A model generated the notes under the pieces. That model had not been told where the DNA came from. It saw only the letters and a list, made by a program, of their open reading frames with translations, and ran no database searches. Shown piece by piece: positions 3 through 59,360 of a stretch of DNA of 64,000 bases. How positions within the stretch are numbered: the stretch's first letter is position 1; each line of letters starts with the position of its first letter. The DNA comes from Candidatus Paceibacter sp. Its GTDB lineage: Bacteria; Patescibacteriota; Patescibacteriia; S139-126. The DNA lies in the NCBI GenBank assembly GCA_020724865.1, contig DYGA01000001.1:196624-260623 (forward strand). The letters are read 5' to 3'. Position numbers and translations under genes: made by a program.

Positions 3-668
3 GTTTTTATGCTGTTATGGTTATTGGTAAATTTAAGTTTGATGATATTACCATTTCCATTTAGTAGTCGTTATACCCAAGGCCTGCACATAATTTTAGT
101 TTATTTCACTGTTGATGCTTTGTTATATATAAATTATTATCTAAAATTAAATTTCAGTAATATTTATAAAAAAATAATTAACGGCAATACCTTACTTTTT
201 AGTATAATATTTGTTTTATTTTTTTCTTTGAGTAATATTTTTCAATTGGTAAGAGATATTTATTATTTTACAGCTAAACCCAATCAGACCGGACAAATAT
301 TTTATTTAGAACAAGGTTTGATAAGTGCTTACAGTTGGCTTGAACAACAAGCAAAAAAAAAGGTAGTTTTGGCAGCAGATATTCCAGCAAAATTCACACC
401 AAGTTACTCTGGTCAGATTGCTTATGTCGCGCATGCCCACGAAACAATTTTTTATTACGCTAAAGCAGCTTATTTAAATTGGTTTTTTGCTGATAACAAT
501 AAAGAAAACGATGACAAAAAACACGCTTGGTTACAGCGTGAAGGTATTGATTATATTTTATATTCTCCGTATGAAAAAGAATTAGGTGATTTTCAACCGC
601 AAGAAAAAAATTATTTAAAACCAGTTTTTTCCAGTGGACAAACAACAGTTTATGAAGTTTTGCCTTAA
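3..668 (+). CDS. C-terminal part of a membrane protein; the gene continues upstream of the window. Function unknown, possibly the periplasmic C-terminal domain of a GT-C-type glycosyltransferase.
   Basis: The open frame runs from the window edge. A hydrophobic N-terminal segment is followed by a soluble C-terminal region. Its stop overlaps the convergent downstream gene through a TTAA palindrome. Confidence 0.4.
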   Translation, partial: VFMLLWLLVNLSLMILPFPFSSRYTQGLHIILVYFTVDALLYINYYLKLNFSNIYKKIINGNTLLFSIIFVLFFSLSNIFQLVRDIYYFTAKPNQTGQIFYLEQGLISAYSWLEQQAKKKVVLAADIPAKFTPSYSGQIAYVAHAHETIFYYAKAAYLNWFFADNNKENDDKKHAWLQREGIDYILYSPYEKELGDFQPQEKNYLKPVFSSGQTTVYEVLP

Positions 669-2488
669 GGTAAATTTATAGTTTCACTGATTGGAGTAGT
701 TTTTAACTCGGGACTAGTTCCTCGCCAACCGTCTATAGCAATATAGCCATCAATCTCTACAATTTTTAGAGATATTTTTTCATCAGGCATTATCGGCAGT
801 AAAGTGTTATAAAATTTTTCAGTTTCCCAAGTGCTAGTTGGATAAAAATACATTAAAGGCCTAAGATATGATTTTTTATGGTTGGTGGTAATTTGCAGAA
901 AATAATCAGCTGACACTTTTTCCTTTATTTGCCAAGTTAGTTTTATTAAATTGTTTTCCGTTTTGGTATTTAGAGAAAAGTTTCCTAAATCAATTTTATT
1001 GCCAGTAGTCACAGTATAATTATAAACTGATTCAAAATTTGAAGGTTGTTCGCTTATTTGCCAAAGCATTAAACTATGATTGAAATATTTTAATTCATAA
1101 TCAGCAAGCAATTTTCTGATGTTTCCAAATCCAGCGGGATAATACTGGTGATAAGATTTTGATTGGGGAAACTGTAGGGCATAATAAATCATGTCATCAG
1201 GATCTAGTACCAGATAATCAGGTTTTTGGTATTCGTATTTTTCTTGAGAAAATTGTTGGTGACCAGTAAAAATATAATGCAGGGAGTATAAATTTTGCCG
1301 GTTGGAAAGAGGTGTTAAGTATTTATAACCAGCCGCTACTTTAGCTTCGGAAGGAATAGTAGTTAATATTTTTTGTGGCCATAGTTTTTCAGGATTTAAA
1401 TTTCTTATTACTCCCCAAGCCGGACCCAAAAATAACAGTAAATAAATCAGCGTCACCACCACAATCAATTTTGTTAAGTTAATATCAAACCATAAAAATT
1501 TGTGCAGTTTATTGTTTTGGGTTTGGATATTTTTTAGTCCCCAAATAGAGCTAACAATTAAAGCCGGAATAAAAAGTGAGGCATAATGAGTATCAACTAT
1601 AATATTACTTCCCCCTGGTTCACCTAATATAAATTGAAATAGCGGACCAAAGGCTAAAATTAAATAATTTCCTGCCAGTAGTGGTAAAAATAAAAAAGCT
1701 AACAGTAGCCCCAATATCATTTCTATATTGCCGAGAGAAAAAAAATGCAAAATAAATTGCCATAAATTGGTATTAAGTAGCCATTCGTAATATACCTGAA
1801 AACGTGAACCCCCAGTTTGGAAATGACTTATTATTATATTAGCTACGACAAAATAACCCAAACTCATAAACAGCGGTGTCAAATACCACCGCAGCGATTT
1901 TTTTTCTATCAAACCCAGTAAAAAAAATCCGCCAACTGCTATAGCTACATCTTCTCTAACCAGTAGCGCCAGGATTAGAAAAATAAAATAATATTTATAA
2001 TTGTTTTTTAAATAAAAATAATAAGCACCAAGCAACAAGGGTATAGCCAAAGGCAACAGGTGCCATTCGTGGAGATTTATATTCCAAGCCAGGGAATTTA
2101 TCAACCAAGCCAAAGCCAAAACTACAGCCAGTTTTTGATTGATAATATTTTTGGCAATCAGATAAATCGGTATGGTGACGCTAGCTATGATAATACTTTG
2201 CCAGAGTAGTAAGTTGAGTGGGGAGGGCCAGAGCCAATAAAAGGGTAAAAGTATATAAAGTAGCGGTTCAAAATGATCAGCAAAATAGTTATGACCTTGG
2301 ATACTAGACCACCAGCCATTACCGGTCGCAGCATTGTAAAAAACATTATTATAAATAGCCAAATCCAAAGCATTGTAACCCAAGAGGTAATATTTATACC
2401 AGCCAATAGTTGTTAGTACTACTACATAGGCAAACATTCCCCAATGTAAGATATATTTTTTTTCTAAAATTTGGCTAAGTTTATTCAT
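665..2488 (-). CDS. Large polytopic membrane protein, DUF2079-like / GT-C-fold glycosyltransferase-like, 607 aa.
   Basis: It has 10 or more predicted TM helices in the N-terminal half. The motif LGYNALDLAIYNNVFYN is reminiscent of the D-x-[AG]-I-[FY]-[DN] signature of DUF2079/ArnT-like membrane glycosyltransferases. A large soluble C-terminal domain follows. Confidence 0.5.
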   Translation of the reverse strand: MNKLSQILEKKYILHWGMFAYVVVLTTIGWYKYYLLGYNALDLAIYNNVFYNAATGNGWWSSIQGHNYFADHFEPLLYILLPFYWLWPSPLNLLLWQSIIIASVTIPIYLIAKNIINQKLAVVLALAWLINSLAWNINLHEWHLLPLAIPLLLGAYYFYLKNNYKYYFIFLILALLVREDVAIAVGGFFLLGLIEKKSLRWYLTPLFMSLGYFVVANIIISHFQTGGSRFQVYYEWLLNTNLWQFILHFFSLGNIEMILGLLLAFLFLPLLAGNYLILAFGPLFQFILGEPGGSNIIVDTHYASLFIPALIVSSIWGLKNIQTQNNKLHKFLWFDINLTKLIVVVTLIYLLLFLGPAWGVIRNLNPEKLWPQKILTTIPSEAKVAAGYKYLTPLSNRQNLYSLHYIFTGHQQFSQEKYEYQKPDYLVLDPDDMIYYALQFPQSKSYHQYYPAGFGNIRKLLADYELKYFNHSLMLWQISEQPSNFESVYNYTVTTGNKIDLGNFSLNTKTENNLIKLTWQIKEKVSADYFLQITTNHKKSYLRPLMYFYPTSTWETEKFYNTLLPIMPDEKISLKIVEIDGYIAIDGWRGTSPELKTTPISETINLP

Positions 2489-2603
2489 AACCTAATCATA
2501 CTGACAAATTAAATCATTGACAAATGTAAAAAAATAAATTACATTAATATGATTTATAAAAGTAAATTAATAATCAAATAATAAAAATAAAACGGAGTGA
2601 GTC

Positions 2604-2990
2604 ATGAAAAAAATATTTATTTTGGTTGTTGCTTTATTGACAGTTGTTTTGTTGGTTGGTTGTGGTTCAACTGTTGAATATACACTCAAAACTTCCAACG
2701 GGGAAGTTAAAGGAAATTTAACAGCTTATAATGTTGAGGAACTTAATGCCACTACCAAGCAAGTTGGTACATTGATTACTATAACTGATTCAAGTTTGTC
2801 TTCATCTGACCGTGCTTTACAGCTTATGTATATTACATCAATGAAGGACAGAGAAGTCCAAATTATAGTTCCTTACGGAAATTATGGTGGCTATTATGGC
2901 TACCAGGGTTCAAGGCAACAAACTAAAGATATGGAAATCAATGCGCTGGTCAGATATCAGCAGTACAAACAAAAGCAAATGCAAAAATAA
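2604..2990 (+). CDS. Small lipoprotein (signal peptide with lipobox LVGC).
   Basis: The N-terminus MKKIFILVVALLTVVLLVGCGS is a classic type II signal peptidase lipobox. A GGAG ribosome-binding site precedes the ATG. Confidence 0.55.
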   Translation: MKKIFILVVALLTVVLLVGCGSTVEYTLKTSNGEVKGNLTAYNVEELNATTKQVGTLITITDSSLSSSDRALQLMYITSMKDREVQIIVPYGNYGGYYGYQGSRQQTKDMEINALVRYQQYKQKQMQK

Positions 2991-3001
2991 TTTTTCAAAA
3001 C

Positions 3002-3038
3002 AAAAAAGCGGAAAATTTTTTCCGCTTTTTATTTTTTT
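3002..3038. terminator. Bidirectional Rho-independent terminator between the convergent lipoprotein gene and the pilin array.
   Basis: The stem GCGGAAAA pairs with TTTTCCGC around a short loop. It is flanked by an A-run upstream and a T-run downstream. Confidence 0.6.
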
Positions 3039-3052
3039 ATAAACAAATAAAA

Positions 3053-3469
3053 TTAGTAAGGTTGATAAGTGGCATAGAGGATTGCTCTAAATATCCAAGT
3101 CGATAAAGCATAAGCTAGAATCACAATCAAAAGACCAATTGTGGCTTGGGTTAATATTTTTCTAGCTTTTTCAATTTGTTGATCATTGCCAGCTGCAGTC
3201 ATCCACAAAAACCCGCCATAGATAATTAGGATGGTAAATAAAATACCCAAAAAACCAAGTAAGGCATTGATAATCAAGGCTATCACCTCTCTAATGTCAG
3301 TATCAGCATTACCCAGTTCGGCAGCTGTCCCAGTGTCAATAATGCCTTGTTTGATTTTGGTACCAGCATTTTGTCCAGTAGTGGTAGCAAGTGTAGGTAA
3401 AGCCGTTGGTAGCATTAGTAATCCCAAAACAAATGTAGAAATTATAATTGTTAATATATTTTTTTTCAT
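3053..3469 (-). CDS. VirB2/TrbC-like pilin family protein, paralog 1 of 6.
   Basis: A signal peptide is followed by two TM helices flanking the conserved motif IIYGGFLWMTAAGNDQQIEKARKIL. Its size and topology are typical of T4SS (conjugative-type) pilins. Confidence 0.6.
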   Translation of the reverse strand: MKKNILTIIISTFVLGLLMLPTALPTLATTTGQNAGTKIKQGIIDTGTAAELGNADTDIREVIALIINALLGFLGILFTILIIYGGFLWMTAAGNDQQIEKARKILTQATIGLLIVILAYALSTWIFRAILYATYQPY

Positions 3470-3478
3470 ATTTTTAAC

Positions 3479-3856
3479 TTATCCCGTAGCAGAAAGTATT
3501 ACGTCAATTATAAATAAAGATAGGGCATAGGCCAGAATAACTATCAAAAGTCCCACTGTAGAGCTGGTCAAAATTTTTCTAGCTTTTTCAATTTGTTGAT
3601 CATTGCCAGCTGCAGTCATCCATAAAAAGCCGCCGTAGATAATCAAAACCAAAAAAATAGTTCCTATAAAACCTAGAGCATATTTGATAATTTCTCCAAC
3701 CAAAAAAGCGGGATTATCAGCTTCGGCTAGTTTAGCTTTTTGGTTGGTAGCTTGGGCAGTAGTTAGGGCATCTTGCAGTACAGAAGCTTTGACTAAACTG
3801 GGCCAAGTAAATATTAGACTAATAAAAAAATAAAATTTTACTTTTAGTTTATGCAT
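3479..3856 (-). CDS. VirB2/TrbC-like pilin family protein, paralog 2. The likely start is the internal Met MHKLKV; the ORF-track start at 3874 would overlap the upstream gene.
   Basis: Its motif IIYGGFLWMTAAGNDQQIEKARKIL is identical to paralog 1, while the N-terminal mature region differs. Confidence 0.55.
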   Translation of the reverse strand: MHKLKVKFYFFISLIFTWPSLVKASVLQDALTTAQATNQKAKLAEADNPAFLVGEIIKYALGFIGTIFLVLIIYGGFLWMTAAGNDQQIEKARKILTSSTVGLLIVILAYALSLFIIDVILSATG

Positions 3857-3857
3857 A

Positions 3858-4187
3858 TTATAAACCAGCATCAATCAAAGTTCTAAAAACAAATTGAGTA
3901 ATGGCAAAAGCCAAGACCACTACCAATAGCCCAATCGTTGATGAGCGAATTATTTTTTGGGCCTTTTGTACTTTTTCTTCATTACCCGCAGCCGTCATCC
4001 AAGTAAAGCCCGCATAAATAATCAACACCAAAAAAACTGTTCCCAAAATTCCCAACACAGAATTGATAATACCACCTACCACATCTGGTAGCGAGGGATT
4101 GGTGAGACCCGTTGCCTGTTGTGCGTCAGAAAGTTGTTGATCCATAGAGGGAATTTGGGCATATACTTGTTTAATAAATTTGATCAT
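3858..4187 (-). CDS. VirB2/TrbC-like pilin family protein, paralog 3. The likely start is the internal Met MIKFIKQ.
   Basis: It carries the motif IIYAGFTWMTAAGNEEKVQKAQKII and two TM helices. Confidence 0.55.
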   Translation of the reverse strand: MIKFIKQVYAQIPSMDQQLSDAQQATGLTNPSLPDVVGGIINSVLGILGTVFLVLIIYAGFTWMTAAGNEEKVQKAQKIIRSSTIGLLVVVLAFAITQFVFRTLIDAGL

Positions 4188-4189
4188 AA

Positions 4190-4819
4190 TTAATTGCAAT
4201 TATAAACACTGCCACAAAGTTCAGCGCAAGTAGCATTGGGTCTAAATAAATTTGGCGAAATACAACTGCTGCTAGTTTGACCATCGGTGCAATTATAGCT
4301 ATTTCCAACTGGTTGCAAACAAGCGCCGGTGGTAGTCGTATTTCCACCGCCAGAACTAGACGAAGATTTTTTATAAGCTTCAATAAAAAAGTTTGTTAAG
4401 GCGAAGGAGAGAAATACTAAAATAAACCCGACCACCGCACTACCTAATATTTTTGTGGCTTGTCTGACTTTTTCTTCATTGCCTCCAGCGGTCATCCAGG
4501 TGAACCCACCATAAATAAATAACACCAACATCACCACGCCAATAATACTTAAAATACCTCTTATTATAGTGCCAATTCTAGTTCCCAAAGAAACATCGGA
4601 TTTTATACCACCAATACCAGCGGCTTTGTCTAAATTGGACAGAGAATCTGCTTTGGCTAAAGTATAAAAAGTCGGAGAATTTGACTCAATAGCAGAAGCA
4701 CCAGTTACTTCAGCTGCTAAGGCAAATTGTCCACCAATAATCACGGCGGCTACCAAAATGATAGCCACCGTGATGTGGAATGTATAATCTTTTATTTTTT
4801 TATAAAAATAAAAATTCAT
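4190..4819 (-). CDS. VirB2/TrbC-like pilin family protein, paralog 4, with a Ser/Thr-rich linker and a Cys-rich C-terminal extension. The likely start is the internal Met MNFYFYKK.
   Basis: The core motif is FIYGGFTWMTAGGNEEKVRQATKIL. The C-terminal tail reads SSSSSGGGNTTTTGACLQPVGNSYNCTDGQTSSSCISPNLFRPNATCAELCGSVYNCN, with 7 Cys and several N-x-S/T sequons. Confidence 0.55.
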   Translation of the reverse strand: MNFYFYKKIKDYTFHITVAIILVAAVIIGGQFALAAEVTGASAIESNSPTFYTLAKADSLSNLDKAAGIGGIKSDVSLGTRIGTIIRGILSIIGVVMLVLFIYGGFTWMTAGGNEEKVRQATKILGSAVVGFILVFLSFALTNFFIEAYKKSSSSSGGGNTTTTGACLQPVGNSYNCTDGQTSSSCISPNLFRPNATCAELCGSVYNCN

Positions 4820-4827
4820 TACTGTAA

Positions 4828-5181
4828 TTATTGAGTAGCACCGATGATTACGCTGAAGATCCAAGTTGATAAGGCGTAAGCAATAATGATAATAAGCAAA
4901 CCAATAACGCCGGCGCTAATAATTTTCTTAGCTTGAGCAACTGCTTCTTCGTTGCCACCTGCAGTCATCCAACGGAAGCCACCTGCGATAATAATCAAAG
5001 TCACTACGATACCCAAAATTCCTAAAACTACATTGATAATACGAGCAATAGTTTCTCTGACGTCTTGTGTACCAAGACCAATTAAACTACCGTATCCTGT
5101 TCCAAATGGGTCAGTAGCCATTGCTGCAACTGGAGCTAATAAAAGTGACAAAAGACCAAAGGCTAATAGTTGTTTTTTCAT
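4828..5181 (-). CDS. VirB2/TrbC-like pilin family protein, paralog 5. It has its own strong RBS and a 117-nt upstream spacer, so it may be the major subunit.
   Basis: The motif is IIAGGFRWMTAGGNEEAVAQAKKII, with a signal peptide ending LLAPVAAMA. The sequence GAAAGGAGGTG lies immediately upstream of the ATG on the minus strand. Confidence 0.6.
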   Translation of the reverse strand: MKKQLLAFGLLSLLLAPVAAMATDPFGTGYGSLIGLGTQDVRETIARIINVVLGILGIVVTLIIIAGGFRWMTAGGNEEAVAQAKKIISAGVIGLLIIIIAYALSTWIFSVIIGATQ

Positions 5182-5298
5182 AATGTCACCTCCTTTCTAA
5201 AATTATATTTTTAAATCATACCTTTTACACTTTACACTAATTAGTGTCTAAGGTGATTTTATTATAACAGATATTATTTATTTTGTAAAGTTGATTTA

Positions 5299-5943
5299 TT
5301 AAGGTGAAGTGCGGCAACATTGAACAGTGGACCCGCCATTACATAAATTTGGCGTGCAAGTTCCATTACAACTTGTTGTGCAGTTTTCTAAACAGATACC
5401 AGCGTAATTGTAAGCGCAGACAGTATTGATAAGCGTATTATTTTCACCATTTTGACAAATATTATTGATACAAACATACACATTACCATCTGGTCCAGAA
5501 CAATTTGCACCATCAGGTTTACCTAAGCATTCCGAAGAAGTAGTATTGGAACTATTTGGATTTAGTTGGTATTGGCCTTTGACACCAATAAGTTTTTGTA
5601 AGTTAGATACAATTACATAGCTACCCAAAACAATTGCCAAACCAATCACAGTACCGACTAAGATATTGCGAGCGCGAGTAATTCGTTCTTGATTGCCACC
5701 GGAAGTAATAAACATCACCCCGCCAATGACCATTAACAGCAGTCCTGCTGCACCAAGATATTTAACTAAAAATAAATAAAAATTGGCAAACATTTGCACT
5801 AAATCAACCAAGTCGCATTTTTCTGCATTTCCTACCAAGCAATCATTCGGAATAATAGGTGAAGTTTGGGCAAAAGCTAAGCTAGGCAGAAAACCTAAGG
5901 CCAAAAACAGAAAAATAAAGAAAATATTTTTTTTAGTTTGCAT
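5299..5943 (-). CDS. VirB2/TrbC-like pilin family protein, paralog 6, with a long Cys-rich, sequon-rich C-terminal knob.
   Basis: The core is ITSGGNQERITRARNIL, with a TM helix on each side. The C-terminal ~85 aa contain about 16 Cys and the sequons NSSNTT, NCSG, NNTL, NCTT and NGTC. Its start overlaps the stop of the upstream SBP gene by 11 nt. Confidence 0.55.
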   Translation of the reverse strand: MQTKKNIFFIFLFLALGFLPSLAFAQTSPIIPNDCLVGNAEKCDLVDLVQMFANFYLFLVKYLGAAGLLLMVIGGVMFITSGGNQERITRARNILVGTVIGLAIVLGSYVIVSNLQKLIGVKGQYQLNPNSSNTTSSECLGKPDGANCSGPDGNVYVCINNICQNGENNTLINTVCAYNYAGICLENCTTSCNGTCTPNLCNGGSTVQCCRTSP

Positions 5944-7339
5944 AAGTTGGTTTAATATAAGTTTGTTTTAGTTGTTCGACGGTATTGCGCATTAGCATAT
6001 TAAGATCAGAAAAATTACCTTGGTTCACTGTGGCTATAAGTTGTTTAATAATTTCTTCAGCTGCAATTGGATTGTAACCCCGATACCAACTTTCCGCAGT
6101 TAATGCTTGTTGGGTAAAGACCGAAGAGTTTGGTTCCGCTTGCTGTTTGGCGATTAGTTCTTTTAATGCGGGAGCTTTGCCGGATTTGGTCAAATAAGTT
6201 TCATTGTATTCTGGTTTAGTGGTGGCAAATAAGATAAAATCCCAAGCCGTATCTTTGATTTGCTGCTCACCACGGGGAGATACTCCCAACAACCAGTAGT
6301 TAGCAAAATTATATTTTTTAGCCAAAGGATCAATTTGTGGCAAGGGGGCAATGCCAAAATCTATTTTTGGTCCGCGGGCTCTGATTAAGGGAGCGTGGTA
6401 AGAATAGCCAAACATCATTGCGGTTCGCCCTTGAGCAAATGCATCCAGTGAATTGGGAAAGGTTTGATTCCAGGTATAAACTTCTTTGATGGGATTGGCA
6501 AAATCCGTATAAAAAATTAGAGCTTGTTGGCCGGGATTGTAGTCTTGACTGCCGCCGGGTGGAATTTTGTCAAAAGCCGGCATGTTGTCCGCACCAATCA
6601 TCTGTGCGCCATTTTGCATCATCAGTACCGACAAAATATCTGTGCCCCGTTCCACATTATCAGCTCTGCCCATAGCCACTGCGCTCCTGACTATTTTATT
6701 ATCCGTATCCAGTCGAGTGAGTGAAAGTACATCTTGTTTAAATTCTGCCCAGGTAGAAGGTGGAGTAGCAATATTAGCATCACTGAATAAAGTTTTATTG
6801 TAGTAAAGCGCCAAGGTATCTAGACCCAAAGGTAAGGCATAAATTTTATTATCTCGAATGACATCGTCTTTGACAACTTTGACAAATTTTTCATCCACTT
6901 GAACTGGGGTGAGAGTGGGAAAATCTTTTAGTTCCCAAATAACCTCTTTCTTGAATGTTCCTTTTGTAGTTTGGATTGGTAAAGCTATGGTTTGTGGTAA
7001 AGGTTCTAATTTTGTTTGGTAAGCTGTCACCCAAGTATTATGTAACATAAAAATATCTGGACCTCTATTTTCTGCCCAAGCTTCCAGCAATGCTCGTTCG
7101 TACTCTTCAATGCGTAGTTTTCGATATTCAAAATTGACATTGGGTCGAGTTTTTTTATACTCGGTAAAAATATCTTGCAACAAATCTTGCTCATCCCATA
7201 CCCCCCAAATTTTTAAAGTGATAGGTTTAGCTGCTTTTTGCGCTTCGGGATCACCGCCTTTGCAACCCACTCCCAACAGCGGTAAAGATAACATAATTAT
7301 CGTCAGTCCAAAAAATTTTATTTTAGTTAAACTTTTCAT
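5933..7339 (-). CDS. ABC-transporter-type extracellular solute-binding lipoprotein (family 1, sugar-type). It is an orphan, with no permease or ATPase adjacent.
   Basis: There is a lipobox LLGVGCKGG. The overall length and the aromatic- and Gly-rich pattern fit family 1 substrate-binding proteins. It is translationally coupled to pilin paralog 6. Confidence 0.55.
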   Translation of the reverse strand: MKSLTKIKFFGLTIIMLSLPLLGVGCKGGDPEAQKAAKPITLKIWGVWDEQDLLQDIFTEYKKTRPNVNFEYRKLRIEEYERALLEAWAENRGPDIFMLHNTWVTAYQTKLEPLPQTIALPIQTTKGTFKKEVIWELKDFPTLTPVQVDEKFVKVVKDDVIRDNKIYALPLGLDTLALYYNKTLFSDANIATPPSTWAEFKQDVLSLTRLDTDNKIVRSAVAMGRADNVERGTDILSVLMMQNGAQMIGADNMPAFDKIPPGGSQDYNPGQQALIFYTDFANPIKEVYTWNQTFPNSLDAFAQGRTAMMFGYSYHAPLIRARGPKIDFGIAPLPQIDPLAKKYNFANYWLLGVSPRGEQQIKDTAWDFILFATTKPEYNETYLTKSGKAPALKELIAKQQAEPNSSVFTQQALTAESWYRGYNPIAAEEIIKQLIATVNQGNFSDLNMLMRNTVEQLKQTYIKPTYAN

Positions 7340-7349
7340 AAAACTACAT

Positions 7350-8234
7350 TTAGATTAATTTTTTTAGATAGGCTTTTAGATCTTTGCTTATCTCCTTATC
7401 TTTTAGTCCATAAGCAATATTGGCTTTCAACCAAGTCAGTTTGTTACCGGTATCATAGTATATGCCGTCAACAATTTTGGAATAAATTGGACGAGTTTTT
7501 CCCAAAGCATCCACAGCATCAACTAGCCACAGTTCATTGCCTTTGCCTAGTTTGGTTTTTTCTAAAATCGGGAAAATATCAGGAGTCAAAATATAACCGC
7601 CCAAATTAGCAATCAATGAAGGAGTTTTTTCTGGCCCTGGTTTTTCAATAATTTTTTCTATCTGATAAACCGTTGGTTCAACTTTTACGCCTTTGAGCAT
7701 GCCGTATTTGGCAGCATCGGCTCTAGGCACTTGGTAACCAGTTGTTACCGGATCGCCATATTTTTGAAAAACTTCAATTAGTTGCAATAACCTTGGTTTA
7801 TCAGGACAATCAAAAACTTCATCTCCCCATAACATAGCAAACGGTTCATTGCCTACAATCGGTTTGGCATTCAAGATTGGCGTTCCATTGCCATAAGGGC
7901 CTTTTTGTCTGATATAAATAAAATTCGCAAGACGCGAAATATTTTTTATTTTTTCATACAGATCTTTTTTAGCTGGACTGCTTTTTAAAATTTCTTCCAG
8001 TTCGGGTGAGCGGTCAAAGTGATCTTCACAGGCGCGTTTAGTATAAGAAGTAACAAAAATAATATCAGTAATACCTGAGGCAACCGCTTCTTCAACCACG
8101 TATTGCAAAATTGGTTTGTCCAATATTGGCAACATTTCTTTGGGAATGGCCTTGGTAGCTGGTAAAAATCTAGTTCCCAGTCCCGCAACAGGAATTACTA
8201 CTTTTCGGATTGGATGAGTAAATTTTTTGGTCAT
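7350..8234 (-). CDS. galU: UTP--glucose-1-phosphate uridylyltransferase.
   Basis: The N-terminal motif VIPVAGLGTRFLPATKAIPKEMLPILDKP and the downstream VDAV..LG pattern are hallmarks of the GalU family. Confidence 0.85.
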   Translation of the reverse strand: MTKKFTHPIRKVVIPVAGLGTRFLPATKAIPKEMLPILDKPILQYVVEEAVASGITDIIFVTSYTKRACEDHFDRSPELEEILKSSPAKKDLYEKIKNISRLANFIYIRQKGPYGNGTPILNAKPIVGNEPFAMLWGDEVFDCPDKPRLLQLIEVFQKYGDPVTTGYQVPRADAAKYGMLKGVKVEPTVYQIEKIIEKPGPEKTPSLIANLGGYILTPDIFPILEKTKLGKGNELWLVDAVDALGKTRPIYSKIVDGIYYDTGNKLTWLKANIAYGLKDKEISKDLKAYLKKLI

Positions 8235-8789
8235 GACAAACTATTAGTTTAATTTATTATAACAAAAATTACCAGTTTTATCCAAATTAAATAAAAAAAT
8301 AAAAAGATACTGTAATTCAAAAGTAACAGTATTTTTTAATATAGAAATTAGTTTAGTGTAAAATCTTGATAAAATACAATGAATTGCAAATGATACTTGT
8401 ACGTCTTTTTTATTTAGTTACAAACATAAAATCAAAAATTTTTTTTACAATTCCTTATTCAAACAGAAATCACTTTGCAAATTGGTGTAAAATTGAAAAA
8501 TAGTTTTGATTTAATCCTATTGTTTTGTTATTTAAAAAAACTTATATTTATTTTTATTATTGTTCAAATATTTAATTTATTCTTGTTTTTTATTCACGTT
8601 GATGCAAAATCATTCATTTTAACTTTACGCTTACTTTTTACAATTACCTTGTATTGGTCTTTTGTATTTGCTCTCATGATATCTTTCGGCATTTGTTTCG
8701 TTTTCCCTACATTATTTATTTTGTGATAACTATAAAAAAACAAATTTAACTAATGTAAAGATAAATTTTTACTTTTTTGTTTATTCAAT

Positions 8790-57512: not shown

Positions 57513-59360
57513 CTAATTTTCCGTCTTAAAACGTCTTTTGGTTTTGATGTACCAATTAGTCGAATCATTAAGACGGTCGCTAGGTATATTTATTCTCGTT
57601 GTTTTAAAGCCAAGTACTTTTTTATTCAACAAATATGAATAAGTTGGTTGAAATAAAAATATTGCTGGTTTGTATTCTAAAATAATATTTTCAAATTGAC
57701 TAAACAGTTCAGATTTTTTGTTTAAATCATTAGTCTCTCTGGCTTGTTCTAATAAAGCATCGGCTCTTTTATTATTAAAGCTGGTCAAATTAAATCCAGA
57801 ATCCTTTTGTTGCGAGGAATGCCAAAATGGATAAAAATCTGGGTCAGCTCCTAGTATTTCTCCGAACAATAATAGTTCATAATTTCGTGTTCTTATGGTC
57901 TCTCTTTGAATACTACTGGCAGGGACAATGTTTAGATTTGTTTTAATACCCACTTCTTGCCAAAAATCTCTTATCATATTGGCCATCTTTATATTGTCTG
58001 GATAGTCAACTGTAGTTAATGTTAATTCTAGTATTTTATTGTCTTTATAAAGGAACTGATCTTCATCTTTCTTTTGCCAATTTAGCTCGGTTAATATCTT
58101 AATTGCTTCTTCGGGATTATACGGATTGGTATTTAAATTTTGATTATAGCCTGGTAATCCTGGAAGTAGTGGACTGGCTAGAGCTAAAGCTTCACCGGCA
58201 AAAACATCATTTATTAATTTATTTTTATCAATAGTAAGTTCCAGTACATTTCTAATTTTTTGTTCTTTAAGAATGTCGTTTTTGTTTTCATTGATAAAGA
58301 TTCCAGTATATTGGGGCAATTGCAAGTTATAGATTTGCAATTGACGGTTGTTTTTTTCTAAGGATTGTTTTTTTTCTTTGGGTATAAAACTTATACCATC
58401 TACATTTTGTTCCAGAAGAGCTTGCCAAGCCAGATCGTAATTGGCATAAAATTTGAAATTTAAATTTTTTATGTAAGGTTTTTGTCCATAAAAATTTTCA
58501 AAAGGCTTTAAAGAATAGGATATTAAGTTGCCGTCTTTATTTTTTTTCAGACCGTCAAATTGCCAGGGCCCAGAACCAATTGGTTTTAAATTAAGTTCAG
58601 CCAGTTTGTAGCTTTGGGAAGATATGTTTTCCCAAGCATGAGCCGGTAAAATACCAACAGTTAAACTATGTAGAAAAGGTGCAAACGGTTTTTCTAAAAC
58701 AAATTGTATTTTACGATCATCTAGTTGATTTACTTTCACTCCTCGAAAAGATGGTTCTAAGGGGGAGTTATTTCTAATATCTTGAATCATGTTAATGGTG
58801 AAAGCTATGTCTTTTGTAGTCAACTCTTTATTATCATGCCAGCGAATATTTGGTTTGATTGTAAAGGTATAAGTTTTTCCGTCAGGAGAAATTTCGTAGC
58901 TTTCGGCTATATCATTTTCTAATTCAAGATTGTTGTTGTATTTAAGTAAACCAGAGTAAATTAATTTTATCAGGTCAGTGTCAACATCATTGGTTGATCC
59001 AAAAATTGGATTAATATATTGTGGCGTGCCAATTAAAGCTTCGGTGTAGCTTCCACCAGCTTTAGGGATTAAAATTGTGTGACGCCAGGTAAAACTAAAA
59101 ATAAATGATAGTAAAGAGATTGATCCAATTAAAATAAAAGATACTACTAACCTTTTTTCTTTTTTATTTAAAAAGCGAGGTAAGTATTTTAATTGTTTTA
59201 AATGGGGCAGTCGCTTAGGTGATAATTGAAGAATTAATTTTTCATCATATTCTTCTACTAAACGGACACCATTTTTTTTCTCAGCTTTAAACCAATAGGT
59301 GATTTTTTTGAACCAATATTGAATAAAGCTGGTAGTTTTATTTAACCACGATAAATTCAC
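57513..59360 (-). CDS. ABC-transporter-type solute-binding protein, family 5 (oligopeptide/nickel type), membrane-anchored. It is an orphan, with no transporter genes adjacent.
   Basis: There is an N-terminal TM anchor. At 615 aa, its size and its aromatic- and Pro-rich pattern are typical of family 5 substrate-binding proteins. Confidence 0.55.
   Translation of the reverse strand: MNLSWLNKTTSFIQYWFKKITYWFKAEKKNGVRLVEEYDEKLILQLSPKRLPHLKQLKYLPRFLNKKEKRLVVSFILIGSISLLSFIFSFTWRHTILIPKAGGSYTEALIGTPQYINPIFGSTNDVDTDLIKLIYSGLLKYNNNLELENDIAESYEISPDGKTYTFTIKPNIRWHDNKELTTKDIAFTINMIQDIRNNSPLEPSFRGVKVNQLDDRKIQFVLEKPFAPFLHSLTVGILPAHAWENISSQSYKLAELNLKPIGSGPWQFDGLKKNKDGNLISYSLKPFENFYGQKPYIKNLNFKFYANYDLAWQALLEQNVDGISFIPKEKKQSLEKNNRQLQIYNLQLPQYTGIFINENKNDILKEQKIRNVLELTIDKNKLINDVFAGEALALASPLLPGLPGYNQNLNTNPYNPEEAIKILTELNWQKKDEDQFLYKDNKILELTLTTVDYPDNIKMANMIRDFWQEVGIKTNLNIVPASSIQRETIRTRNYELLLFGEILGADPDFYPFWHSSQQKDSGFNLTSFNNKRADALLEQARETNDLNKKSELFSQFENIILEYKPAIFLFQPTYSYLLNKKVLGFKTTRINIPSDRLNDSTNWYIKTKRRFKTEN

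Follow-up and report, generated by a model that had tools for sequence, protein, structure and literature searches.

Six diverged PF18895 pilin-like genes led by a solute-binding lipoprotein gene in a Candidatus Paceibacter genome

Background

Patescibacteria, which spend their lives fixed to the cells of a host, make up much of the diversity of bacteria. In one genome of this group, that of Candidatus Paceibacter sp. (NCBI GenBank assembly GCA_020724865.1, contig DYGA01000001.1), we considered a stretch of 64,000 nucleotides (nt; positions 196,624 to 260,623 of the forward strand, hereafter "the window", within which coordinates are counted unless another locus is named) that carries six consecutive minus-strand genes for small membrane proteins at 3053-5943. 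An earlier interpretation of the same DNA, made from its letters alone and without database searches (below, the sequence-only reading), had taken these genes for diverged paralogs of VirB2/TrbC, the pilins of conjugative and type IV secretion systems (T4SS), arranged in tandem with no T4SS machinery nearby. The question raised by the locus is whether its products are pilins of this kind and, if so, what they may serve where no secretion machinery is encoded beside them. We found that the six proteins fall into the pilin family PF18895, that the array is a typical member of a class already described in Patescibacteria, and that it is headed by a solute-binding protein (SBP) gene whose position is conserved across many species.

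Results and discussion

Six paralogs of one pilin family

All six open reading frames (ORFs) predicted by the sequence-only reading were recovered at 3053-5943 on the minus strand. They are numbered here from P1, the last gene of the array, to P6, with lengths in amino acids (aa) and scores against PF18895 (T4SS_pilin), the gathering score of which is 26.6 bits.

3003..3030, unstranded: bidirectional intrinsic-terminator-like hairpin closing the array, 3' of P1; 12-bp stem flanked by A and T runs
3053..3469, minus strand: P1, short pilin paralog and final gene of the array; 138 aa; PF18895 34.1 bits
3479..3856 (3479-3874 from a TTG), minus strand: P2, short pilin paralog; 125 aa from the ATG at 3856, 131 aa from the TTG; PF18895 28.1 bits
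3858..4187 (TTG at 4199), minus strand: P3, short pilin paralog; 109 aa from the ATG at 4187, 113 aa from the TTG; PF18895 37.6 bits
4190..4819 (TTG at 4864), minus strand: P4, long pilin paralog; 209 aa from the ATG at 4819, 224 aa from the TTG; PF18895 37.1 bits
4828..5181, minus strand: P5, putative major pilin; 117 aa; PF18895 39.7 bits; signal peptide and helical hairpin
5182..5298, minus strand: P6-P5 spacer; 117 nt; promoter-like site, palindrome and Shine-Dalgarno sequence
5299..5943, minus strand: P6, long pilin paralog; 214 aa; PF18895 24.4 bits and a weak TrbC match
5933..7339, minus strand: SBP_bac_1/SBP_bac_8 solute-binding lipoprotein gene heading the locus; 468 aa; PF01547 (E = 5.9e-23) and PF13416 (E = 2.8e-22)

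P1 to P5 score above the PF18895 gathering score and P6, at 24.4 bits, lies slightly under it, but some P6 orthologues carry a precomputed match to the family; six adjacent matches to one family are not chance, and the profiles place all six proteins in PF18895. The best NCBIfam model for P1-P5 is NF045849 (pilin-like conjugal transfer protein), of which P3 passes the equivalog cut-off (45.1 bits against 40) and the other five paralogs stay below it. Direct matches to PF04956, the VirB2/TrbC family itself, were under threshold (E = 0.13 for P6; E = 6.7e-4 and 20.3 bits, against a cut-off of 27.9, for a pilin of a second locus described below), and many homologues show weak PF04956 co-matches. 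When the P5 family was aligned by hhalign with six annotated VirB2/TrbC genes from plasmids of the T class of mating-pair formation (MPF-T), the match extended over 55 columns (E = 6.2e-5, probability 64.7%), with both helices in register and a G(F/I)xWM motif common to the P5 family and genuine VirB2/TrbC. Taken together, PF18895, NF045849, the hhalign match and the weak PF04956 co-matches bear out the VirB2/TrbC-like identity proposed by the sequence-only reading, and they support, short of proof, a remote homology of the array proteins to VirB2/TrbC.

The six proteins align over a common core with the invariant pattern G..G....T..GN......A..I......G and are 23-50% identical in pairs. Hydropathy indicates two hydrophobic helices in each of them, so that the two-transmembrane (TM) topology first proposed holds throughout. 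The core motif quoted in the sequence-only reading is found in P1-P4, has a near match in P5 (IIAGGFRWMTAGGNEE) and is degenerate in P6 (VIGGVMFITSGGNQE), and the signal peptide that it ascribed to every paralog is clear by hydropathy in P1, P4, P5 and P6, marginal in P2 and missing in P3. P3 is devoid of the hydrophobic signal-peptide core possessed by its orthologues in four related loci (L009, L011, L013 and L014), and a longer N-terminus is blocked by an in-frame stop; this protein may insert without a signal peptide, or its gene may be decaying.

The AlphaFold2 model of P5, built with 69 homologues, consists of a signal-peptide helix and, after it, a predicted hairpin in which four residues form the loop between helix 41-73 and helix 78-116 (predicted local distance difference test, pLDDT, 81.7), in keeping with the topology deduced from hydropathy. 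The P6 model (13 sequences, pLDDT 56) was too poor for reading its cysteine-rich tail or for a fold search. In primary structure P6 comprises a signal peptide, two conserved N-terminal cysteines, the two-TM hairpin, an S/T/N-rich linker and a C-terminal tail with 12 cysteines, the framework of which is kept in 12 homologues, and P4 comprises the hairpin, a poly-S/G/T linker and a tail with six cysteines. Both proteins carry disulfide-rich C-terminal modules on S/T/N-rich linkers.

P1 and P2 are 50% identical to one another. Their genes, about 75% identical over 191 nt, are moreover nearly identical for about 50 nt in the region of the conserved loop (3155-3235 and 3572-3652), which points either to gene conversion or to a later duplication giving rise to the two.

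P5 as putative major subunit

For comparison, 80 related loci with 10-kb flanks were collected by a scan of species-representative genomes; they come from Magasanik-, Falkow-, Uhr-, Buchanan- and Komeilibacteria and further Patescibacteria. The five named lineages, to which the closest relatives with a name belong, correspond to what we take to be the GTDB class ABY1.

The sequence-only reading had noted a strong ribosome-binding site and a spacer of its own in front of P5, and from these had suggested one major subunit accompanied by minor or variant ones. Both features are present: the 117-nt P6-P5 spacer contains a sigma-70-like promoter sequence with an extended -10 box (TTTACA-17-TGtTATAAT at 5289-5261) which, with 11 of 12 positions, is the best match in 2500-8600, followed by a palindrome in the 5' untranslated region (UTR), ACACTAATTAGTGT, and a consensus Shine-Dalgarno sequence, AGGAGGTGA. 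Upstream of the P5 orthologues of three related loci (L009, L011 and L016) there is again such a promoter, a hairpin in the corresponding place and the Shine-Dalgarno sequence. Among P5 orthologues 26% have a strong Shine-Dalgarno sequence, against 2% of the other array genes, and the median upstream gap is 101 nt for the former against 14 nt for the latter. In distant loci, P5 alone of the six slots has a clear orthologue, and this stands at the head of the main array. Measured against the orthologues in L009, the closest orthologous array, the nonsynonymous divergence (dN) of P5 is 0.06, compared with 0.17-0.36 for the other five paralogs and 0.10 for the SBP; P4 is the fastest-evolving slot (0.36 overall, 0.76 in the tail), and the rate in N-terminal regions and tails is several times that of the core. 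These dN values are relative ones, as the synonymous divergence (dS, about 1-3) is saturated even against this closest array; dN/dS was for this reason set aside as a measure of the diversifying selection that the sequence-only reading had suspected, and what the sequences show is faster change in the N-terminal regions and tails. The promoter-like site, the consensus Shine-Dalgarno sequence, the lowest dN and the distant orthology support the proposed division of labour, with P5 as the conserved, presumably strongly expressed putative major subunit.

The hairpin in the 5'-UTR of P5 directly follows the -10 box; its position is conserved while its sequence varies between genomes, with folding z-scores of -1.4 to -4.9, and the UTR has a stretch containing ACCTT that is able to pair with the Shine-Dalgarno sequence. 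It could act in stabilising the mRNA, as an operator or in the control of translation. Nothing in 2400-8700 scored above the gathering scores of Rfam.

A conserved link to a solute-binding lipoprotein gene

The gene that heads the locus encodes an SBP with a lipobox-like LLGVGC, and its end overlaps the start of P6 by 11 nt, so that P6 appears to be translationally coupled to it. This arrangement is not particular to the window. In 60 of the 80 related loci the array is immediately preceded by an SBP orthologue of the same orientation, at a median gap of 10 nt; restricted to the 69 loci with enough upstream sequence, the count is 58. When the association was sampled from the SBP side on long contigs, all three SBP homologues considered (45-49% identity) were followed by a PF18895 gene after a gap of 5-19 nt, and in these three loci a six-gene main array stands 2-6 kb further on. 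Across related loci the pilin encoded next to the SBP is usually long and rich in cysteines (medians of 191 aa and 6 cysteines), and many species keep the order SBP, cysteine-rich pilin, major pilin, further pilins. The sequence-only reading had not recognised the combination of array and solute-binding lipoprotein as a described one; the link is real and strongly conserved, and no description of it was found in the literature searched. Equally absent from that literature were the lack of a VirB4-like gene within 10 kb of all 80 loci, the standing of P5 as putative major subunit and the conserved cysteine-rich tail of the SBP-adjacent pilin. What is possibly new here is an array almost always led by a sugar-binding lipoprotein gene and set apart from secretion machinery.

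The SBP gene is followed by pilin genes and not by those of an ABC importer; neither BPD_transp nor ABC_tran was detected among the window ORFs scanned (every ORF of at least 285 aa and six of those of 186-252 aa) or among the recurrent neighbour families of the 80 loci. A second SBP gene of the window (SBP_bac_5, 615 aa, 57513-59360) is located between a tRNA-Leu gene and uvrC, likewise away from any gene for an ABC permease or ATPase.

Genes related to glycans are found repeatedly near the arrays (window 665-2488 and 7350-8234; L001 11821-15836; L102-L104), among them a GalU-like NTP-transferase gene upstream of the SBP in 47 of the 80 loci and genes for DUF2079, GT2, GT87/MptA-like GT-C and 9-TM proteins of about 540-560 aa that have no assignment. 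These glycan genes and the S/T/N-rich linkers of P4 and P6 raise the possibility that the pilins or neighbouring surface polymers are glycosylated. About 15 of the 80 loci have, at a distance of a few kb on the upstream side of the SBP-pilin locus, genes for type IV pilin-like proteins with the N_methyl motif, in some cases together with CarboxypepD_reg or Fib_succ_major (for example L042 4230-4844 and L082 1807-3606). In L104 such a gene (6873-7895) stands just before the SBP, and two unrelated pilin types are thus found in one neighbourhood.

Secretion genes around the array

Consistent with the sequence-only reading, which had seen no VirB4, VirB6, VirD4 or relaxase gene in the window, the Pfam scan of the window ORFs specified above gave unrelated assignments or none at all, and revealed no VirB4, VirD4, VirB6, VirB11, relaxase, ABC permease or ABC ATPase. 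The five T4SS genes of this list were likewise missing from the 80 related loci with their 10-kb flanks. Nor did a complete T4SS come to light immediately outside: the 10 kb beyond the window start have no T4SS genes and encode two unassigned 9-TM proteins, a GT2, an H+-PPase, NusA and ValRS. Within the related loci, the only ORFs of at least 450 aa with a Walker A motif are SMC, FtsK and ComM, and no VirB4-like ORF occurs in the 104 loci fetched. The window itself has about 33% GC and carries ordinary chromosomal genes (rpoB/rpoC, gyrA, polA, uvrB/uvrC, trpS or tyrS, RNase J, murein genes and eight tRNAs). A T2SSE ATPase gene adjoining the array in L013 and L014 was considered and rejected; it gives a full-length PilT/PilB-type match and is a non-recurrent neighbour.

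The window also corresponds to part of a JGI contig of 346 kb (Ga0246236_1000010), on which two more PF18895 genes are present about 190 kb from the array (L005 10001-10357 and 14990-15370), with no T4SS genes nearby. The first encodes a solitary pilin of 118 aa and adjoins a gene for a patatin-like phospholipase. The second encodes the 126-aa pilin with the PF04956 match cited above (E = 6.7e-4), and after it come three ORFs without a Pfam match, for a soluble protein of 233 aa, a protein of 439 aa with about 6 TM helices and a C-terminal domain, and a single-TM protein of 203 aa.

Distribution of the family and modular relatives

At E <= 1e-3, P5 matches 25,433 cluster representatives (clusters at 50% identity). 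Of the related loci, 72 out of 80 have five or more pilin-like ORFs; the median number is 8 and the highest 15. The window array is a typical member of a described class: with six tandem genes of 23-50% identity, it falls within the published definition of a patescibacterial VirB2 array as at least two VirB2-like genes of low identity, either in tandem or with one non-pilin gene between them (PMC12102498). The novelty that the sequence-only reading had seen in a six-gene array was overstated; such arrays, many of them away from virB4, have been published (PMC12102498, PMC10633639, PMC12857230), and six genes is below the median of the related loci. The order P6-P5-P4-P3-P2-P1 is collinear in nearer relatives (L009, L011, L013 and L014), which speaks for old, individually maintained subunits rather than a set of cassettes with fast turnover.

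Some relatives are far larger. L095 7670-16903 encodes a protein of 3077 aa in which an N-terminal PF18895 domain is followed by adhesin-type domains (Big_5, TIG, Laminin_G and VWA), other giant proteins of 2,000-6,060 aa also start with a PF18895 domain, and further matches have 8-11 pilin-domain repeats in one predicted protein. These giant and repeat proteins, P0170, P0172, P0252 and P0272 among them, may be genuine fusions, or the gene caller may have run several array genes together. In Logan assemblies of the same or close strains (L002-L004 and L010), several short-read assemblies break in or at the edge of the array. Such breaks fit a repeated core sequence that confuses assemblers, and array sizes in fragmented metagenome-assembled genomes are likely undercounted.

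Comparison with known systems

A recent survey reported 441 VirB2 arrays of 2-11 genes in 383 Patescibacteria assemblies, with a mean identity of 25% and a maximum of 54%, most abundant in Microgenomatia and Saccharimonadia; VirB4 was present in 2417 of 3035 assemblies (about 80%), but of 1948 assemblies only 1135 had pilins near virB4 (Quinonero-Coronel et al. 2025, PMC12102498). In Southlakia epibionticum ML1, a six-gene pilin series is essential and sits inside a T4SS cluster (Wang et al. 2023, PMC10633639; PMC12857230). The array of the window resembles these patescibacterial arrays in its family (PF18895), in its tandem paralogs of comparable divergence, in its chromosomal position without a relaxase in a monoderm host of the Candidate Phyla Radiation (CPR), and, as regards Southlakia, in its number of genes. 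It differs in having no VirB4 within 10 kb, as is also true of the 80 related loci, whereas the Southlakia array is embedded in its T4SS cluster; in being led by an SBP_bac_1 lipoprotein gene and a cysteine-rich pilin, both unmentioned in the published descriptions consulted; and in its Magasanik-/Falkowbacteria-type lineage, away from the published peak of abundance. The CPR pilus that has been solved, Pam, is unrelated, being an Ig-fold, donor-strand pilus (preprint "A Novel Pilus System in CPR").

The array proteins have several features in common with VirB2/TrbC/TraA (PF04956; the T-pilus of A. tumefaciens and the F pilus): after the signal peptide, two hydrophobic helices form a hairpin around a short basic loop; the end of helix 1 has the G(F/I)xWM motif in register; and the mature size of the short paralogs is about 70-100 aa. 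The similarity is nevertheless remote (hhalign probability 65%), and the array differs in its monoderm host, its six or more paralogs instead of one, the lack of an adjacent VirB1 or VirB3-B11 and the long cysteine-rich C-terminal extensions of some paralogs, and it shows no sign of cyclisation or of lipid-containing filaments. The NF045849 proteins Mbov_0395 and MMCAP2_0565 of the integrative and conjugative elements (ICEs) of Mycoplasma are, like the array proteins, small two-TM proteins of wall-less or monoderm hosts with MPF-FATA-type systems, but their gene is a single copy in a mobile ICE with VirB4 and VirD4, in contrast to the multi-gene chromosomal array without ICE features considered here. 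With type IV pili (S. sanguinis PilB, PMC8179133) there is a functional analogy only, in that an abundant conserved subunit and minor ones are encoded in one operon and some subunits have an extra C-terminal module with a possible role in adhesion; family, fold and assembly machinery are unrelated, and the N-methylated class III signal peptide is absent from the array proteins.

A model of the locus and its alternatives

The explanation that we consider probable, taken as a whole, is that of a chromosomal operon encoding six ancient PF18895 paralogs, the products of which would be Sec-exported VirB2-like hairpin subunits, assembled by a T4SS, with P5 as the major one and contact with the host cell as their purpose. 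The proteins would be exported by Sec (or YidC) and cleaved by signal peptidase, leaving the N- and C-termini outward and the short conserved loop (TAxGN[DE][EQ]..K..K) on the cytoplasmic side. From the resulting pool in the membrane, the pilins would be extracted and polymerised by an MPF-FATA-like T4SS (VirB4/VirB6/VirB3), which in most Patescibacteria would be encoded elsewhere on the chromosome. P5 would form the bulk of a pilus, or of an envelope-spanning conduit for contact with the host cell, and P1-P4 and P6 would be minor or adaptor subunits, the cysteine-rich tails of P4 and P6 being displayed outside the filament as binding modules. The co-transcribed sugar-type SBP lipoprotein may be a dedicated partner that, for example, senses or captures a host-derived glycan at the site of contact. 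Topology, dependence on VirB4, formation of a filament and the role of the SBP are what we infer in this scheme.

Several observations weigh against this explanation. The tight and conserved coupling to an SBP has, to our knowledge, no counterpart in known T4SS biology. For about 58 kb to one side of the array and 13 kb to the other, no T4SS component was detected among the ORFs scanned, and the 80 related loci have no VirB4-like ORF within 10 kb; the dependence on a T4SS is itself argued from homology and from Saccharibacteria. P3 is without a normal signal peptide. A Foldseek search of the PDB with the P5 model gave no significant match and generic hairpins only, the fold being too simple to inform, and a profile search of solved structures returned chance hits and no match to solved pilins. 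Finally, no PF18895 filament is reported for any organism in the literature searched.

A rival explanation is a module that works without a T4SS, in which the hairpins and the SBP would form a separate envelope complex, either a hetero-oligomeric membrane channel or scaffold fed by the SBP or a surface layer or anchor for adhesive modules. Such a module would account for the SBP orthologue directly upstream (58 of 69 loci, three of three when approached from the SBP side, and an overlap of 11 nt in the window), for the lack of an ABC permease or ATPase near the SBP among the ORFs scanned, for the absence of a VirB4-like gene within 10 kb from all 80 loci, and for the fact that the best-conserved part of the proteins is the short loop predicted to be cytoplasmic and not the exposed parts. 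We nonetheless hold it to be unlikely, because the family is homologous to VirB2/TrbC, the equivalents in Saccharibacteria are essential and sit in a T4SS cluster, the presence of VirB4 in about 80% of Patescibacteria assemblies indicates that a partner machine is probably encoded elsewhere, and two-TM hairpins have no precedent as an SBP-dependent transporter. Unlikely too, though with a little more in its favour, is the broader conjecture that PF18895 proteins have become uncoupled from the T4SS in the lineage of Magasanik-, Falkow- and Uhrbacteria type, where they would constitute, with the SBP and the recurrent GT2/GT-C neighbours, an undescribed surface system. It would be made up of a P5-type major hairpin, an SBP-coupled cysteine-rich subunit and several minor subunits, and might act as a VirB4-free pilus or envelope conduit or as an SBP-fed device for uptake of, or attachment to, host glycans.

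The paralogs could also be a repertoire of variants, in which several candidate major subunits would take turns, or be combined in varying proportions, so as to suit particular host strains or to escape recognition by host or phage, as has reportedly been proposed for the multiple VirB2 copies of Bartonella and Anaplasma. The faster evolution of the exposed N-terminal regions and tails and the near-identity of about 50 nt between P1 and P2, with its hint of gene conversion, would agree with such a repertoire, and the idea has been put forward for patescibacterial arrays (PMC12102498). Yet the slots are collinear orthologues that look old and individually maintained, P5 alone has strong expression signals of its own, and arrays of similar size are near-universal in the clade. 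An inverted-repeat scan yielded AT-rich pairs of low identity only, which leaves no invertible promoter; there are no repeats of the invertible-element type, and no recombinase gene was seen among the ORFs scanned around the array. On balance we judge a repertoire of variants to be rather improbable, slightly more so than the modules considered above. That the six are not pilins at all but holins, bacteriocin immunity proteins or hairpins like subunit c of ATP synthase, merely sharing a two-TM topology, seems very improbable indeed. The weak generic hairpin matches of Foldseek, which include F0 subunit c, and the lack of a significant sequence match to a solved pilin would suit such proteins, but they are outweighed by the HMM (hidden Markov model) matches at family level, with five of the six proteins above the PF18895 gathering score, and by the profile-profile match to genuine VirB2. 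Signal peptides and extracellular cysteine-rich tails do not befit holins or immunity proteins, and the genes scanned around the array are housekeeping and envelope genes, none of them suggestive of a phage or a bacteriocin. The family matches and this gene context led us to reject a holin, immunity-protein or bacteriocin identity.

Conclusions

A VirB2-like pilin series is essential in the one species of Patescibacteria in which this has been tested. The locus described here adds no new kind of element, but the comparative work that it occasioned gives several leads. The P5-type paralog is the probable main building block of these arrays, and some of their subunits are modular, with cysteine-rich or giant adhesin-like extensions. 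In one large lineage, moreover, an orphan sugar-binding lipoprotein regularly accompanies the arrays, which stand apart from the T4SS ATPase; this conserved link is modestly interesting and apparently unreported. If it is functional, it could connect the recognition of host glycans, or the capture of nutrients, with the pilin apparatus of epibiotic bacteria.

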